Positions 27,001-36,000 of a stretch of DNA of 64,000 nt are shown piece after piece. Made by a program: the position numbers. The DNA comes from Candidatus Omnitrophota bacterium (GTDB lineage: Bacteria; Omnitrophota; Omnitrophia; Omnitrophales; Aquincolibacteriaceae): NCBI GenBank assembly GCA_023247055.1, contig JAHFHF010000008.1, forward strand, positions 733 through 64,732, written 5' to 3'. Every line of letters starts with the position of its first letter. Position 1 is the stretch's first letter.

Positions 27001-30000
27001 CGCCCCGCAAACCCTAGCCGTCTGGCGCACTAGTTTTCTTGTCTCTTCCCCGGATTTTTGGTATTCTGCCCATTAACCGCTGAGGTGAGCATGTTTTCCG
27101 AACAAACAAAAATTGTTCAAACCGCACTGAAACTTCTGGCCATTCTGGCCGTGTCGCTTTTGGCAAGTGTTGCCGTTTATTGGAGCCTCCAGCCCCGCGG
27201 CGGGCTCTTATTTTCCAACGCTGATTTTGAGGCGGGCTCGCTTAAAAACTGGCGGCCGGAAGGCTCGGCTTTCGAAAGCCAGCCAACGCTGGGCGATAAC
27301 CCTGTTAAACGGGGCCGCGCCAAACCGACCGCCATCCAAGGCCGCTACTGGATCGGCACTTATGAAAAGCACCCGTCCGCCAAGGCTGCCGAAGGCTCTT
27401 TTCAAGGCGATGAGGCGACGGGCCGTTTAACCTCCATTCCTTTCGTTATCCGTAAAAATAAAATTTCTTTCTTGGCGGGGGCCGGCAACGGCAGTCCGGC
27501 CACCACCATCTCGCTGGTGGTCGAAGGCCGCACGGTTTTGACGCACAGCCCCAATGCCTTTATTTCCAGTGAAGAGACTCTCGCGCGCGTAACTTGGGAC
27601 GTCAGCGCTTGGCGCGGCCAAAAGGCCCGCCTGGTCCTCAGTGATCAGGCCTTTAGCGGGTGGGGCCATCTCAATGCCGATGATTTCCGCTATGCCTAAT
27701 ACGGATTTCCCAGGTCTGCCTGCCCGCCAGCAATTTGGCGGGCAAAGCATCCGTTTATTCCTCCTGCTTCTTCCTCTCGCCTTGTCCGGCTGCGCGGCAC
27801 TTCAGCCGCTGGTCAGCGATTTCAATATTGTGTCGGTGGACGAGGAAAACCAGTTGAGCCAGAAAATGTCCGCCGAAATTGCAAAGTCCATGAAGCTGTC
27901 GGCCGATGCGACGCTCAATCAAAAAGTGAACACCGTTGGAAATAAACTGGTGGCGGCCCTGCCGTCCAAACAATTCAACTACCGTTTTTACGTGGTCGAA
28001 GAACCCAGTCCCAATGCGTTCACCATTCCGGGTGCGGGCATTTATGTGCATACGGGGCTTTTTAAACTGGCCACCAGCGAGGGCGAACTGGCCGGCGTCC
28101 TGGCCCATGAAATCGGGCATGCTTACGAACGCCATCCGGCCAAAGGGATTTCACGGCAGTACGGGCTGGAATATGTCTCGGGGCTGCTTTTCAAACAAAA
28201 TAAAAATCAGCTGCAGCAGCTGGCTTTGAACTATGCCAAGGGCGGGATATTAAATAAATACGGACGGGGCGACGAGCGCGAAGCCGATGATATTGCTTTT
28301 GATTTGTTGCGCAAATCAGGCTATTCGCCGGACGGTCTTATTCTTTTCTTCAAAAAACTGCAGCAAATCTCAAAGGGCAGCGGCGTGCCGGAGTTCTTAA
28401 GCAGCCATCCCCCCACCCCTGAACGTATTGAGCGTCTTGAACAGCTGAAACTTCAGACCACCCACGTTTCCAGAGTCTAAAACCTAACGCGCTGTGCGAG
28501 TTCCCGCGTCGCTGTAAGTCTAATCACGCGCATCGTCATTGCGGGCATAAAGGTTAAAAGGTGGTGCTGTTTTTTAGCGAATGCTGAAGCGATCTCAGAT
28601 CAAAAACGAGATTGCTTCGCCCTTAAACATCACCGGCTCGCAATGACAAAAATAAGTGCAATGGCAGGTCCTATTCAAATCGAATCTCTTATTCGAGAAA
28701 AGATCATAACGGACATCACCTTTATTTTGTCATGGCGAGGAGACTCGCCGCTTTTTGGCGAGCGACGAAGCAATCTCGAAGGGAGAATGGGATTGCTTCA
28801 GCTTCAGAGAGCCTTCCTGCTTCGCAATGACGCGCTAACGATTAGGGTTATGAATATTTATGAAACCGGCTCTAAGCGTTCATCCTTACAAATCGCCACT
28901 GCCATACGCGCGTTGATTGGGCTTCTCGTCCGCGTTACTCCGGATAAATAATCCGGACATTTTCCTTTGAATCCGGACTCTGCTTCGGTTTTGTCCTGCC
29001 CTCGTCCTTGAGTCCATAAATAACCATTGGAAGCCCCGCGGCGACAAGCCCGCCCGCGAGAAGCAGGCGTAAAAGTTCCGGGAAAAAAAGCACGATCAGG
29101 CCCAAGCCAAGCAGGATAAGACCGGCGGTCAGCGCGGTTTTGCGGCCGCCGGTTTGAAAAAAGTCAAAAATAAATGATTTCATAGGTTTTCATTTTCTCC
29201 TGTCAGTGAATTTTATGCAAAATCGAACGAAGATCTTCCTGGGTTAACGGCCTGGGATTATTTTTCACGCGGTCAGGACGAAAACCATCGCGAATGATGA
29301 GGCCCTGCCCTTTTTCGTCAATTCCGAGCGCGGCCAGCGAACGCTCAAGCGAGGCCGTACGCATCAGGCTTTCAATCGATGCGGCCATGCTCTCATAATC
29401 GGCGGCGCCAAAACGCTTGAGCAGCGGCTGCCCGGCTTCTTTCAGTACGGGCGCATTAAAGCGCACAAATTCAGCCAGCGTCAAGGCGCAGGCATGCCCG
29501 TGGGCCACGTTGAAATGGGCCGTGATCGGGTAGGAAACCGAATGCACGGCCGTGGTGCGGGCATGCGCAATGGCAAAGCCGGCTTCGCAGCTGCCCTGCG
29601 ACATGGCCAGCCGGGCCTCGGAATTTTGAGGATCGTTGACGGCTTTTTCAAAGCCCGCCAAAATGCGTTCAAGTCCTTTTAAAGAATGCCTCTGCGATTC
29701 GGCATTCGCATGCACCGACCAAAAAGATTCGATGGCTTGGCTCAGGGCATCAAAACCCGTACATACGGTGACATAAGGCGGCATGGAAAGGCAGAGTTCG
29801 GGGTCCACCAGCGCAGCGGCCGGGTAAAGGGCCCGGTGCGCAATGGAAAGCTTTTTCTTGTCCGCGGTTTCAAGCGAAGCAAACGGAGTGACTTCACTGC
29901 CCGTTCCCGCTGTGGTGGGTACGGCAATGAGCGGGCGCACGGGACCGTTCAGTTCAAAATTTCCCTGCAGGTAAACGGACAAATCTTGCGAAGCCTGCCC

Positions 30001-33000: not shown

Positions 33001-36000
33001 ATACCGCAGGCATCATTCAAGCCGCGGGCGGCATCCAGATTTTCGGTCATGGTAAGGATATTGGCGTCAGGAACGACGTGTGCCGTGGAAATTTCAAGGC
33101 CGCTCGCCCAGACGCTGTCAAAGCCCGCCTGCTCGATCAGCTTAGCGCCCAGGCCGTGATGCGCGCCCATAACGCGTACGATTTTGCGGGTCTCTAAAAG
33201 ATTACGCAGGGCCGCCGCTTTATCACTCATTTGTGGTAATACTCTTTGTCATCTTGGACAATGCGCGCCGCATTGTCCGGACCCAGCAGGGAAAGTTCCT
33301 GACGCGTATCACTGCCGATGTTCTGGCCAAAGGTAATCGCCAGAATGCGCCCCAGGTTTTTAGGTTCCGGCGAATAAAAAGCATGCGGCACAAAGCCGGG
33401 GATCAGCCAGGAATCCCCTTCCGTAAAAATCTCCTCATGGACTTTGCCTCCAAACTCCCACAAATAGGCCACGGGTCCGCCGTGCAAAACCTGGGTGTAT
33501 TGGTGGAAAAAATGCCCGCGGTTCATGACAACGTCTTCGCGGCGGTGGAGGTGTAAAAGCAATTCGACCGGCTTGAAATTCGGCAGGGCCTGCGACATGC
33601 AGCGGTTCCAATAGGTGTATTGGGTCCGGCCGGCCCGGTCCTGGTCAAATTTACAGGCATCTTTGTGGCGCATGATTTTGATGCCGCGTTCCAGGTCATT
33701 GTCAAACGGCAGCAGGTCCCGCACGCTGACGTAAAAATATTTGGCCAGCAGTTCGAGTTCGCGCCACTCGGGCTTGGCTTCGCCTTTTTCAAGCGAGCGC
33801 AGGCGCGCTTCCGCAATTCCGGTCGTCTTGGCGACCATGGCAAAAGTATGCTTGACCTCATTGCGCCAGGCGTGGATCAGCCGGCCGTATTCGAGATAAG
33901 GCGTTTGCGCTGCGGTCGTATCACTCATGCGGTCCCTCCCCAAAGCTTGGTCAGATTCTCAAAATCCTGCAGCGTATCGATTTCGCGCCACCGCCCCGCC
34001 GTAGGCTGGCAGGTGACCGTAACGCCTTGATTGGTCAAATATTGTAGCATATCGGTGACATAGGCCTTTTCGAAAATGGGGGCCCGTTGAAAAGGCTTTC
34101 CGGAAAAAATGCTTTCAGCCTCCAGGTATTTTTTTCTGAACATCTCCGCGCCGGCCCGGCTGAATTTCATCATTCCAATGAATTCGCCGTGCAGAGGCCC
34201 TGACTGTCCTGAGATCTTGCCAATGCGCCGGACCTGCGGGGTGTCATCCATTTCAACCATCTCGGCCTCGGCCGGCGGATGATCCGTTCGCCCCTGATAA
34301 GCTTTCTGCCAGGCTGTATCCACCGCCAAAACAATGTCTTCCGGCGCCTGGAGCAAGTTGCGGGGCACGCTCGGCTCAAACCAGATGTCCGAATAAGACG
34401 CCAAGAGTTCATCGTCAAATTCAGCCGCGGCCTTCATAAGAGACCCTAAAATATTATTGCGCTCAAAATCATGGTTCCAGACATAACGGACGTCTTTGCG
34501 CGTAAATTTTTCACCCTGATAACCCCGGATCACCACGATCTCTGAGATACCGCAGCTGCGCAGGGCTTCAATCTGCCTATCAAAAAGCGTCGTCCCGCCT
34601 GAGCGGATGGCCATGCACTTCGGAAGGTCGCGGGTCATGGGACGAAGGCGCGTTCCCATACCCGCAGCAATAAGGATGGCTTTCATAGGACGTCTTTCCC
34701 GGCCGGCCATACTTCAGCCGGACCGGAATGAACTTATATTTTTTGGGCAACAAACATCCGGATGTCGAAAGGGTTCACGTAGAAGTTTGAATTTTGGCCG
34801 CTTTGGGGCTGAAAAAACTTTCGCAGGACGGCCGACAGGTTCCGGCTGTAGCAGCCAATGCGCCGTTTGAATAAATCCAGCGAAACATATTTGCCTTCAA
34901 ACTTGCTCATGACGACCCGGAATCCGCATTGCTTCAGCAGCTGCGTCATGCTTTTTCCAGAAAAAAAGAAAAGATGCTCTTCGTCTTTAAAACCCATCCA
35001 GCGTTCGCGGAAAAGCCAGTGCGTCAGACTATCCACATCCGGAGTTGCCAGCACAAGCCAGCCGCCGGGTTTCAGCAAACGGTAAATTTTTTCAAGATCA
35101 CGGCGGGGCTGACGCACGTGCTCGATCACGTCCCAAAGCGTCACAACATCAAAAAGTTTTTCTCCGGAAGGCTCAAAAGATTCTAACGGACCGCAATAAA
35201 CATCCGCGCCTGATTTGCGGGCGTAAGCCGCCGCGTAATCCGAAATTTCAATGCCTTTGACCTCCCAACCCCGCTCCCGCGCTACGGCAAGAAAAAAACC
35301 CGCCGCACAGCCAATATCCAAGACCCTTCCCGGCTTTGTTTGAAAACGGTCGATAGTCCGGAATCTTTTTTGAAAGGTCCGGCGGATATTTTCTTCATCC
35401 CGGATGTAATCATCATAGCCCGTGGCCACGGACTGGCGGCTGACAAAATAACTTTCGCTATAAAGTTTCTTAAGCGTTTCAAGGCTGGGCTGGGGAAAAC
35501 TAAAAATGAATCCGCAGTCTTTGCAGCGGTAGACTTTTTCGAGGTTGGGATAAAGCAGCTTCGCCTTGCCCGAGCCGCACAATTCGCAGCAAAGGCCGGT
35601 CCCGGCATCAAGACCTTCGTGTCCTGCTTTTTCAGATTTTTCTTTCATGCTTTCGAGGGTCATGAGTCATCCAATCCTGGGCTAGAAAAAATGATATTAA
35701 TCGATTAATTCAAAAATTTCAATCACATGTCCGTTGCGCTCACGACTGGCTAGATCCGTCCATAGAAAAGGCGCGCCCGTCAGCGGGACGGCAGACACCG
35801 GCCATTCTCTTGAATTATTTTTATAAGGACTGAACCGGGCAATCCGGCGGGCCTTCCGGCCGAGTTCGGCATAAAAATCCGGGTGTTGGTTCTTATTCAC
35901 TTTGGCAATGATGACGGTGCGAATTCCAAGGGCCCGGAGCGCATCCACGCTATAAGGAATCCGGGGCTGGGAAAACAAAAATCCGCCGGCCAAATCATCG

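Follow-up and report, generated by a model that had tools for sequence, protein, structure and literature searches.

A single-unit MPnS/HEPD-family oxygenase homolog in a 2-hydroxyethylphosphonate cassette within an envelope-glycan locus of a Candidatus Omnitrophota bacterium

We analyzed a 64,000-nucleotide stretch of DNA from a Candidatus Omnitrophota bacterium (assembly GCA_023247055.1, contig JAHFHF010000008.1, positions 733 to 64,732; hereafter "the window"), in which a phosphonate cassette adjoins an extended set of envelope-glycan genes. The key gene of this cassette encodes a 233-aa helix-turn-helix (HTH)-cupin protein which, by sequence homology, is a single-unit homolog of the non-heme-iron oxygenases of the methylphosphonate synthase (MPnS)/hydroxyethylphosphonate dioxygenase (HEPD) family, and which is encoded together with the enzymes for 2-hydroxyethylphosphonate (2-HEP) synthesis. 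The reading that we favor, at a probability of roughly 0.45, is that the cassette makes a C1 phosphonate derived from 2-HEP, with methylphosphonate the favored product, which would be activated with cytidine monophosphate (CMP) and linked to a glycan or lipid of the cell envelope. A preliminary description of the locus had proposed an activated 2-HEP, or a cupin-modified derivative of it, on the cell envelope. The 2-HEP core and the glycan context of that proposal stand, while the head group is more likely to be a C1 phosphonate (methylphosphonate or hydroxymethylphosphonate, HMP) than 2-HEP itself, because the cupin is an MPnS/HEPD homolog with the full set of active-site residues. A novel phosphonate product is possible.

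The oxygenase homolog and the 2-HEP core

Open reading frames (ORFs) were listed across the window, their products were compared with Pfam and NCBIfam profiles at curated cut-offs, and solved relatives were found with phmmer against the PDB. The HTH-cupin matches MPnS (6b9s, E = 3e-38) and the class II HEPD of Streptomyces albus (SaHEPD, 6b9r, 2.5e-29), followed by HppE and Psf4 (1e-9 and 4e-7). Each MPnS repeat (24-232 as well as 261-450) can be aligned with the entire length of the 233-aa protein, which therefore comprises one HTH-plus-cupin unit where MPnS and HEPD have two, and so departs from the two-tandem-repeat form (~450 aa) of MPnS. Its earlier label, a cupin of the HppE/HepD/MpnS architectural type, points in the right direction and is too weak, as the protein is a true homolog of MPnS and HEPD, with their full residue set in a single unit. 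An AlphaFold2 (AF2) monomer model has a mean pLDDT of 72.5, reaching 80-94 in the cupin core, and its top Foldseek matches are MPnS, HppE and HEPD only (HppE at probability 1.0).

The active site was read from a 184-unit MAFFT alignment of single-unit proteins with the N- and C-halves of two-unit proteins. Residues K26, R98, Y106 and N136 align with K28, R102, Y110 and N145 of MPnS, which we take to be its HEP-binding residues (K28 lying in the HTH-like alpha domain), and the 2-His-1-Gln triad H139, Q143 and H182 aligns with H148, Q152 and H190; all seven are invariant across 20 aligned family members. At the position of Ile184 in MPnS and Gly184 in SaHEPD stands I176, an Ile in 117/117 scorable members; Gly184 is said to give the Gln ligand of SaHEPD freedom to move. 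His142, directly before the Gln ligand, lies in a GHFFHQ motif like the GHFMHQ of MPnS and unlike the GHLLYQ of SaHEPD, and at the C-terminus a YY pair, also invariant, is aligned with the QWF tail of repeat 2 of MPnS. Residue counting in the phmmer alignments recovers K28, R102, Y110, N145, H148, Q152, F162, I184 and H190 of MPnS, and Q153, Y163 and G184 of SaHEPD. Methylphosphonate synthesis requires the 2-His-1-Gln triad together with a Gln-adjacent Phe and Ile (PMC11978286, citing Born et al. 2017). At the Phe position, the 120 family members compared have Tyr in 95 cases, Phe in 19 and Cys in 1, and since Tyr and Phe interchange among proteins that are 62-85% identical, the Tyr hydroxyl at residue 155 is probably not essential. 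Because the Ile and the His before the Gln ligand match MPnS, and this hydroxyl is probably dispensable, the residues favor MPnS-like chemistry, though only to a moderate degree.

The core for 2-HEP, consisting of phosphoenolpyruvate (PEP) mutase (PepM), phosphonopyruvate decarboxylase (Ppd) and an iron-dependent alcohol dehydrogenase (Fe-ADH), is real, as the preliminary description had held. PepM scores 329.2 bits on TIGR02320 (cut-off 319.55) and falls below the cut-offs of the paralog models for phosphonopyruvate hydrolase (PPH, TIGR02321; 288 against 374) and PrpB (181 against 354). With PEP mutase 5unc as its best solved relative (E = 4e-103), it is not a paralog of the isocitrate lyase/methylisocitrate lyase (ICL/MICL) kind. 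Its active-site motif, EDKHFPKVNS at aa 111-120, was found as described and fits the EDKxxxxxNS definition of PEP mutases (PMC6697681, PMC8931226). The mutase occupies aa 1-290 of a fusion protein, and a C-terminal nucleotidyltransferase (NTase) domain aa ~293-561 (PF12804 at aa 296-408, 2.7e-8). Ppd scores 363.8 bits on TIGR03297 (cut-off 312.5), and the sulfopyruvate decarboxylase models all remain below their cut-offs (beta model 173.6 against 221.5), so that it is not a sulfopyruvate decarboxylase; its thiamine diphosphate (ThDP) motif is GDG-x26-N instead of the GDG-x24-N first reported, and fits GDG-x(24-27)-N. The ADH is a group III enzyme of the Fe-ADH family at large (PF00465, PF25137), with the GGGSxxD motif present as GGGSVID. 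Its best NCBIfam match is the phosphonate-type model TIGR03405 (Phn_Fe-ADH) at 235.7 bits, short of the equivalog cut-off of 423.7, and synteny makes it a probable phosphonoacetaldehyde reductase in the PhpC/FomC/Pdh role. Among window ORFs of at least 150 aa that do not lie antisense inside another called gene, no class-V (PhnW-type) aminotransferase, radical-SAM (S-adenosylmethionine) enzyme or FomD was matched, in keeping with the reported absence of a 2-aminoethylphosphonate (AEP) transaminase, Fom3 and FomD.

The ORF list places six ORFs on the minus strand at 29203-35663, namely the five cassette genes and an upstream Zn-ribbon methyltransferase, just as first described. The accompanying claim that the five genes are coupled by overlaps of 4-19 nt holds for two junctions, NTase/cupin and cupin/PepM, which overlap by 4 nt (ATGA) each with ATG starts; the 19-nt figure at NTase/cupin needs an upstream TTG start. 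The others are gaps of 2 nt (Ppd/ADH), 47 nt (methyltransferase/NTase; 23 nt with the longest ORF) and 111 nt (PepM/Ppd). The cupin ATG, whose ATGA overlaps the NTase stop, is preceded by a GGAGG box, and the same ATG starts appear in the gene call of a Logan contig with identical genes.

A half-size family and its conserved neighborhood

A search of 5.8 billion proteins returned at least 163 sequence clusters of this half-size protein, all derived from metagenomes or metagenome-assembled genomes (MAGs). The best 120 of these clusters are 214-250 aa long and 62-85% identical, and members bear no functional name, being unnamed, "hypothetical" or "XRE family transcriptional regulator". In a library of 1.84 billion representatives, the MPnS/HEPD/HppE superfamily comprises 239 representatives at E <= 0.001, and the half-size family is a single one of them (P0083). 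Its nearest neighbor, at 41% identity, is the two-unit protein P0121 (447 aa), in which the residue set is complete in the N-half and the second His has been lost from the C-half. In a neighbor-joining tree with bootstrap, made on a reduced taxon set, the N-half and the C-half of P0121 both group with the half-size proteins, so that P0121 represents an independent tandem fusion. The half-size family is monophyletic in 86% of bootstraps and forms a deep branch of its own outside the crown groups of MPnS and HEPD, with no supported placement relative to the N-half and C-half clades. Taken together, these features suggest a homo-oligomer in which identical subunits do the work of the two MPnS repeats, as in HppE, which is a homotetramer, and the existence of an independent tandem fusion supports such a two-unit functional assembly.

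A scan of one genome per GTDB species yielded 11 loci, all in MAGs, labeled Omnitrophota (3), Planctomycetia (3), Nitrospinia (1), Actinomycetota (1), Gammaproteobacteria (1) or unclassified (2). Searches of these loci by tblastn with the window proteins reveal a conserved gene order. All 11 have an NTase immediately upstream of the cupin, and PepM follows the cupin in 9/11, with the fused NTase domain seen in the five where the contig reaches it. The ADH (35-52% identical) is present in 7/11; three of the other four contigs end first, and L005 has none, carrying a NUDIX gene and a cytidylate kinase after its PepM-NTase gene instead. Apart from the window, Ppd was found only in L011. Of the cassette genes the cupin is conserved best, and its pairing with the stand-alone NTase persists in loci that lack PepM-NTase (L009, L010).

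Two arrangements recur around this core. The type A loci (L005, L009, L011) include a NUDIX gene and a cytidylate kinase, and L009 and L011 also a CDP-alcohol-phosphatidyltransferase-family gene; in L010 a CDP-alcohol transferase follows the ADH. These neighbors point to a chemistry that frees CMP, and the cytidylate kinase in particular argues for its stoichiometric release and hence for CMP-phosphonate donors. In the type B loci (L004, L006, L012) a TagF-like glycerophosphotransferase is encoded upstream, PepM-NTase is directly followed by the ADH, and the ADH by a 543-aa sulfatase/LtaS-like protein. In the closest relative, L002 (85% cupin identity), a 701-aa sulfatase-family protein is encoded directly upstream of the NTase. 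Individual loci show further features. The cassette of L009 (Planctomycetia MAG, 6758-15755) lies inside a nonulosonic-acid-type cluster (NeuB, PseB-like, DegT, GATase), L010 (Nitrospinia MAG, 9154-13481) has a 283-aa protein without a family between cupin and ADH, and L012 carries a D-2-hydroxyacid dehydrogenase (VlpB-like) and a CMP-sugar-type cytidylyltransferase a few genes beyond the cassette.

The stand-alone NTase (PF12804 4.4e-12; PF00483) has LicC (1jyk, 2e-11) and PntC (6pd1, 4e-6) as its best solved relatives and an N-terminal AAGMGTRLRP motif that fits GxGxR(L), and is probably a cytidylyltransferase. It shares 36% identity along its entire length with the NTase adjoining a canonical two-unit MPnS (P0135, in a cluster named "methylphosphonate synthase" by the JGI) and 40% identity with the NTase adjoining P0121. 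Because homologous NTases adjoin both, the MPnS-type oxygenase and the NTase form a shared module, the strongest contextual argument that the stand-alone NTase would activate the oxygenase product. P0135 adjoins a sulfatase-like gene as well, and the earlier contention that the gene complement differs from that of the Nitrosopumilus type is too sweeping, since the canonical cluster also has the homologous NTase. The PepM-fused NTase domain, 30% identical to the stand-alone NTase, has a divergent AAGDARK motif. Its description as a Fom1-like PepM-cytidylyltransferase fusion is ruled out by domain family and order, the PF12804 domain here being C-terminal and the PF01467 domain of Fom1 N-terminal (PMC6697681). 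Rice et al. 2019 (PMC6697681) found about 60% of Ppm proteins fused to NTase domains, most often of the PF12804 LicC/PntC type (33% of Ppm), which makes the window fusion one of the ordinary Pnt type.

Proposed pathway and competing readings

In our reading the cassette is a phosphonyl-tailoring (Pnt-type) operon belonging to the 2-HEP branch. In the pathway that we propose, PepM would convert PEP to phosphonopyruvate, Ppd would pull this unfavorable equilibrium by decarboxylation to phosphonoacetaldehyde, and the Fe-ADH would reduce the aldehyde to 2-HEP. The HTH-cupin would act as a homo-oligomer, with two identical units standing in for the two MPnS/HEPD repeats, and would bind free 2-HEP, its presumed substrate, bidentately to the Fe(II) of His139, Gln143 and His182. 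Cleavage of the C1-C2 bond driven by O2 would most likely give methylphosphonate and CO2, and less likely HMP and formate. The translationally coupled LicC/PntC-like NTase would then turn the product into a CMP-phosphonate, with a presumed preference for cytidine, and the PepM-fused domain may activate HEP or the same product. Finally, a membrane transferase would free CMP and esterify the phosphonate to an envelope glycan or lipid, the putative acceptor, which the neighboring machinery of glycosyltransferases (GTs) of the GT2 and GT-C types would build. The candidate for this transferase in the window is the CDP-alcohol phosphatidyltransferase-family protein at 12969-13811, which is 31-33% identical to the CDP-OH_P_transf-like genes that follow NUDIX and cytidylate kinase in the cassettes of L009 and L011; elsewhere a sulfatase/LtaS-like protein may take its place.

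Several points weigh against this pathway. All family members come from uncultured organisms. Omnitrophota are often anaerobes, while the cleavage chemistry requires O2, and some members come from Omnitrophota-labeled MAGs; the 2OG-Fe(II) (2-oxoglutarate) oxygenase encoded at 26154-27017 indicates that this genome has other O2-dependent enzymes. The family is ~27% identical to MPnS-like and HEPD-II-like N-halves alike, and MPnS-, HEPD-, PhpD-like and C-half profiles all score it at 110-138 bits; as the subfamily profiles do not discriminate, assignment of the product by overall similarity was rejected. Its Y155 stands at the position of F162 in MPnS and Y163 in SaHEPD, so that the strict published Phe signature of MPnS is lacking. 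The pairwise phmmer alignment sets Ala154, one residue away, opposite F162; for this column (GPVAY against GPVNF/GPVNY) we give the MAFFT placing more credence. In the AF2 monomer, the linker and the C-terminal tail are modeled with low confidence. At the level of the loci, the pathway does not account for there being two NTases, and 15 kb separate the candidate transferase from the cassette. No PepM is found within 10 kb of NTase-cupin-ADH in L009 and L010, and L004, L006 and L012 are without Ppd within the fetched flanks, where either ppd is located elsewhere or phosphonopyruvate is drained differently. A distant single-unit protein, P0124, is not in a phosphonate context, and functional inference is for this reason limited to the tight family. 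P0124 (L013 1849-2565, 238 aa, 37% identity) has the full H/H/Q triad with Phe and Ile and adjoins genes for DoxX, GATase and rhodanese; its substrate may be HEP taken up from outside, or another compound.

An HEPD-like reaction, in which 2-HEP is cleaved to HMP and formate and the HMP (possibly O-methylated by the adjacent methyltransferase) is CMP-activated, is an alternative that we consider unlikely. The Tyr at 155, which the window protein shares with 95/115 members, corresponds to Tyr163 of SaHEPD, the HEPD-II and PhpD-like profiles score slightly above the MPnS-like profile, and the methyltransferase lies just upstream of the NTase, at the 47 nt given above. Marine bacterial HMP clusters also adjoin cell-surface genes (PMC9381506). 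Against this reaction, the class II combination of Tyr with Gly184 is broken by the invariant Ile, as in MPnS, and the interchange of Tyr and Phe in a presumably isofunctional family makes an essential hydroxyl improbable. The His142 motif likewise fits MPnS and not SaHEPD, and no HMP-oxidizing dehydrogenases of the PhpE/PhpJ type are present.

Similarly doubtful, in our view, is a head group consisting of 2-HEP itself or of some new derivative of HEP, with the fused NTase making CMP-HEP and the cupin either acting on CMP-HEP or performing another reaction, such as the dehydrogenation, hydroxylation or 1,2-shift of HppE on alternative substrates. Precedents exist in the HEP-decorated exopolysaccharide of Stackebrandtia nassauensis (cited in PMC8942020) and in Fom1, which cytidylylates HEP (PMC6697681). 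Two paralogous NTases would also suggest two activated species, the cassette-linked NUDIX could, by analogy with FomD, hydrolyze a transient CMP-phosphonate, and the family branches outside the MPnS/HEPD crown groups. The invariance of all four residues that in MPnS bind the free phosphonate speaks against a bulky CMP ester as substrate, however, and the 2-His-1-Gln triad with Ile is the set of the C-C-cleaving enzymes, whereas HppE has 2-His-1-Glu. Moreover, the best-conserved gene, the cupin, always keeps the stand-alone NTase as its partner, also in loci missing PepM-NTase.

Much less probable is a regulatory role, with the HTH-cupin an XRE-family regulator whose cupin senses a ligand and controls the phosphonate operon. 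It is true that Pfam and NCBIfam detect HTH models only (HTH_31 at 27.0 bits, equal to its cut-off; HTH_3 and HTH_26 below theirs), that homologs are named as XRE regulators, and that XRE-cupin regulators are common. Yet XRE regulators appear in the PDB search at E = 0.04-2, far from the 3e-38 of MPnS, and the HTH-like alpha domain is also found in MPnS, HEPD and HppE and carries the Lys aligned to K28 of MPnS. The metal and substrate residues are invariant, an identity of 62-85% across phyla would be unusual for a regulator, and the gene is translationally coupled on both sides within a biosynthetic operon. A fosfomycin/HppE-type pathway to a small-molecule antibiotic, suggested by the single HTH-plus-cupin unit and by PepM, Ppd, Fe-ADH and NTase as early fosfomycin steps, is the least credible of all, given a Gln143 ligand in place of Glu, no B12 radical-SAM enzyme (Fom3) or FomD gene among the window ORFs scanned, a similarity to HppE of 1e-9 against 3e-38 to MPnS, and a context of glycan or lipid modification in every locus.

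Genomic setting, significance and comparison with known systems

The envelope-glycan context of the cassette is real and is partly conserved in L002, L003, L009 and other loci. The co-directional minus-strand run extends over 29.2-53.7 kb as described, although only ~17 kb (29.2-46.4 kb) of the reported 25-kb string of glycan genes is glycan-related. The glycan-related genes upstream of the cassette encode GT2 and GT-C proteins, four short-chain dehydrogenase/reductase (SDR) epimerase/dehydratases, two UDP-glucose dehydrogenases and RmlA/RmlD-like proteins, and beyond them the same strand encodes LptD, two GGDEF proteins, an ABC ATPase and AccD. Coordinates of the principal features are collected in Table 1.

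Table 1. Principal features of the window and one related two-unit protein. Positions refer to the window unless a locus is named.
Feature	Position	Strand	Evidence and remarks
82-aa ORF, long hydrophobic stretches	28935-29183	-	ORF list; start 19 nt past the ADH stop
Fe-ADH	29203-30327	-	PF00465 1.7e-37, PF25137; best NCBIfam TIGR03405
Ppd	30330-31433	-	TIGR03297 364 bits
PepM/Ppd intergenic spacer with hairpin	31434-31544	-	Minimum free energy (MFE) and motif scan
PepM-NTase fusion	31545-33230	-	TIGR02320, PF13714 7.7e-56, PF12804
HTH-cupin oxygenase homolog, 233 aa	33227-33928 (ATG start; longest ORF 33227-33943)	-	phmmer against PDB, Foldseek
Stand-alone LicC/PntC-like NTase, 253 aa	33925-34686 (longest ORF to 34710)	-	PF12804, PF00483
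Zn-ribbon + class I SAM methyltransferase	34734-35663	-	PF13489 2.9e-32
GT-C1, PMT/ArnT-like	35697-37397	-	PF02366, PF13231; orthologs near the cassette in L003 (37%) and L009 (33%)
Dpm1/ArnC-like GT2	37394-38107	-	PF00535 9e-29; 4-nt overlap with GT-C1; L003 ortholog 63%
GT2b	24074-24901	-	Pfam
GT-C2	22173-24143	-	Pfam; 32% to L003 7187-9040, directly upstream of the L003 NTase-cupin
811-aa protein, no Pfam family	19829-22264	-	41% to L003 4809-7208; 28% to L009 4084-6468
CDP-alcohol phosphatidyltransferase-family membrane protein	12969-13811	-	PF01066 1.4e-7
NUDIX hydrolase	56364-56942	-	PF00293 1.2e-17; 43% (L011), 39% (L009)
P0121, two-unit protein	L015 1244-2587 / L016		Followed by NTase; type I phosphodiesterase-family gene ahead

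The Dpm1/ArnC-like GT2 next to GT-C1 would, by its sequence, be of the polyprenyl-phosphate sugar synthase type. In L003 the gene order is GT2, GT-C1, a 799-aa protein, GT-C2, NTase and cupin, and GT-C1 and the ~800-aa protein also have orthologs in L009. Because these orthologs adjoin the cassette in both loci, its link to periplasmic glycosylation by polyprenyl-phosphate sugars and GT-C enzymes is partly conserved. A third GT2/GT-C pair lies at 12216-12947 and 10516-12207 on the minus strand, making three pairs of Dpm1/ArnC-like GT2 and PMT/ArnT-like GT-C in all; with a DUF2079 membrane protein (8846-10519, minus strand) and a 519-aa weak PMT_2 protein (13913-15472, minus strand), the locus is unusually rich in GT-C proteins. 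Genes farther downstream, beyond the GT-C2 region, encode DegT, an epimerase, GNAT, a GT2 and a methyltransferase, followed further downstream by GT4, GT2, a Wzy_C ligase and a carbamoyltransferase. Close downstream of the cassette, at 25228-28480, four plus-strand genes break up the minus-strand glycan locus; they encode a TylF-like O-methyltransferase, the 2OG-Fe(II) oxygenase, a 213-aa protein without assigned function and an M48 peptidase.

Other genes of the window have less certain ties to the cassette. The 82-aa ORF after the ADH has no Pfam match; it is likely a small membrane protein and possibly the last gene of the operon. The Zn-ribbon methyltransferase, with its CxxC-x17-CxxC motif, is present upstream as first described, and is a loosely associated accessory outside the conserved core, with homologs of 29-33% in L004, L008 and L011 and none in L002, beside whose cassette it is missing, or L003. 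A role as a DhpI-like phosphonate O-methyltransferase was considered for it and rejected, as only generic class I and sugar C-methyltransferase (TcaB9) matches were obtained and DhpI was not listed. The NUDIX hydrolase is a possible ortholog of the cassette-linked NUDIX proteins, weakly linked at a distance of 21 kb, and no cytidylate kinase or sulfatase-like gene was found in the window. At 60689-63512 (minus strand) lie a CysN/CysC-like fusion (EF-Tu GTPase and adenosine phosphosulfate (APS) kinase) and a gene of the PAPS (3'-phospho-APS) reductase family (CysD/CysH-like), and the glycan/phosphonate locus of L002 includes an APS kinase gene, a hint of sulfated glycans in addition to the phosphonate.

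The 111-nt PepM/Ppd gap contains a near-perfect hairpin of ~85 nt (dG -53.4 kcal/mol, z -6.9), whose arm motif GTCATTGCGAG has 6 matches in the window against 0.9 expected. The motif also occurs within 1820-1918 (an inverted pair at 1820/1899), at 28628-28647 and at 57031-57050, mostly in intergenic sequence, and the hairpin looks like a member of a small family of palindromic repeats resembling repetitive extragenic palindromes (REP) or miniature inverted-repeat transposable elements (MITE). Rfam had no match for the element, and Rfam and tRNA scans returned nothing relevant to the cassette. Promoter-like sites (10 against 6.0 +/- 2.4 expected) and terminator-like sites (18 against 18.1) were near chance in number and were not used.

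Methylphosphonate is the proposed substrate of aerobic methane production (the "methane paradox"), and its producers are currently recognized only through the two-repeat MPnS marker. [quoted passage not shown] A single-unit MPnS/HEPD-type homolog that occurs across phyla, in complete HEP operons of uncultured bacteria from groundwater and the sea, is a candidate for the missing C1-phosphonate production. More tentatively still than the pathway itself, we suggest that these ~235-aa proteins are a homo-oligomeric, pre-fusion-like MPnS and an overlooked source of methylphosphonate esters in groundwater, sediment, freshwater and deep ocean, in lineages labeled Omnitrophota, Planctomycetia and Nitrospinia. 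If this is true, surveys that use KEGG K18049, full-length MPnS references or identity cut-offs would be expected to miss the family, because databases label its members XRE regulators or hypothetical proteins. It would also help to explain methylphosphonate-driven methane production without detected mpnS, and would mean that tandem fusion of such single units produced the two-repeat architecture of MPnS and HEPD on two or more occasions, a process of which P0121 offers a view. As a minimal scaffold of 233 aa with a natural combination of Tyr/Phe and Ile, the protein probes the published rule that separates MPnS from HEPD. The locus further points to envelope phosphonate decoration in Omnitrophota-like bacteria, whose surface chemistry is, to our knowledge, little studied.

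Compared with MPnS of Nitrosopumilus maritimus and Pelagibacter (6b9s/6b9t), the system shares the fold, the HEP-binding residues, the metal triad, Ile184 and the PepM-Ppd-Fe-ADH route, along with a homologous NTase (36%) in the cluster, sulfatase-like genes in relatives, and the proposal that the product ends up esterified to a polymer of the cell surface (PMC9381506). It differs in having one unit of ~235 aa instead of two in ~450 aa, at ~27% identity and mostly with Tyr for Phe162. Further differences are the PepM-NTase fusion, a subtype with CDP-alcohol transferase, cytidylate kinase and NUDIX, and a separate deep branch with hosts among Omnitrophota-, Planctomycetia- and Nitrospinia-labeled MAGs. 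SaHEPD (6b9r) resembles the window protein in the 2-His-1-Gln triad, the Tyr163 position and the substrate-binding residues, whereas the window protein is a single unit, has Ile for Gly184 and His before Gln, and does not lie in a phosphinothricin-like cluster. HppE and Psf4 (1zz6, 5u55), the (S)-2-hydroxypropylphosphonate epoxidases of fosfomycin pathways, likewise combine one HTH-like alpha domain with one cupin (~190-200 aa in HppE), but HppE has a 2-His-1-Glu triad and needs 2-hydroxypropylphosphonate (2-HPP) from Fom3 or Psf enzymes, which are not in the window.

The phosphonyl-tailoring (Pnt) clusters with Ppm-PntC fusions (Rice et al. 2019, PMC6697681) share the PepM-PF12804 fusion and the scheme of CMP activation followed by transfer to the surface. 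Characterized PntCs activate 2-AEP in clusters with an AEP transaminase, in contrast to the HEP route, oxygenase and second, stand-alone NTase seen here. Fom1 is also a bifunctional PepM and cytidylyltransferase, the latter acting on HEP, and is set apart by the family and position of its NTase domain as noted above. HEP-branch neighborhoods make up 8.5% of ppm clusters (Li & Horsman 2022, PMC8942020), and only two HEP-branch families have products, the methylphosphonate adduct of N. maritimus and the HEP-exopolysaccharide of Stackebrandtia (PMC8942020). We found no description of a single-unit MPnS or HEPD in the open full-text literature; as subscription journals were not covered, a prior mention is possible. 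Given these precedents (PMC6697681, PMC8942020), the logic of the pathway, with its HEP branch, oxygenase, nucleotide activation and surface ester, is already known, and what is new here is the single-unit oxygenase family, the combination of markers, the host range and the accessory genes.

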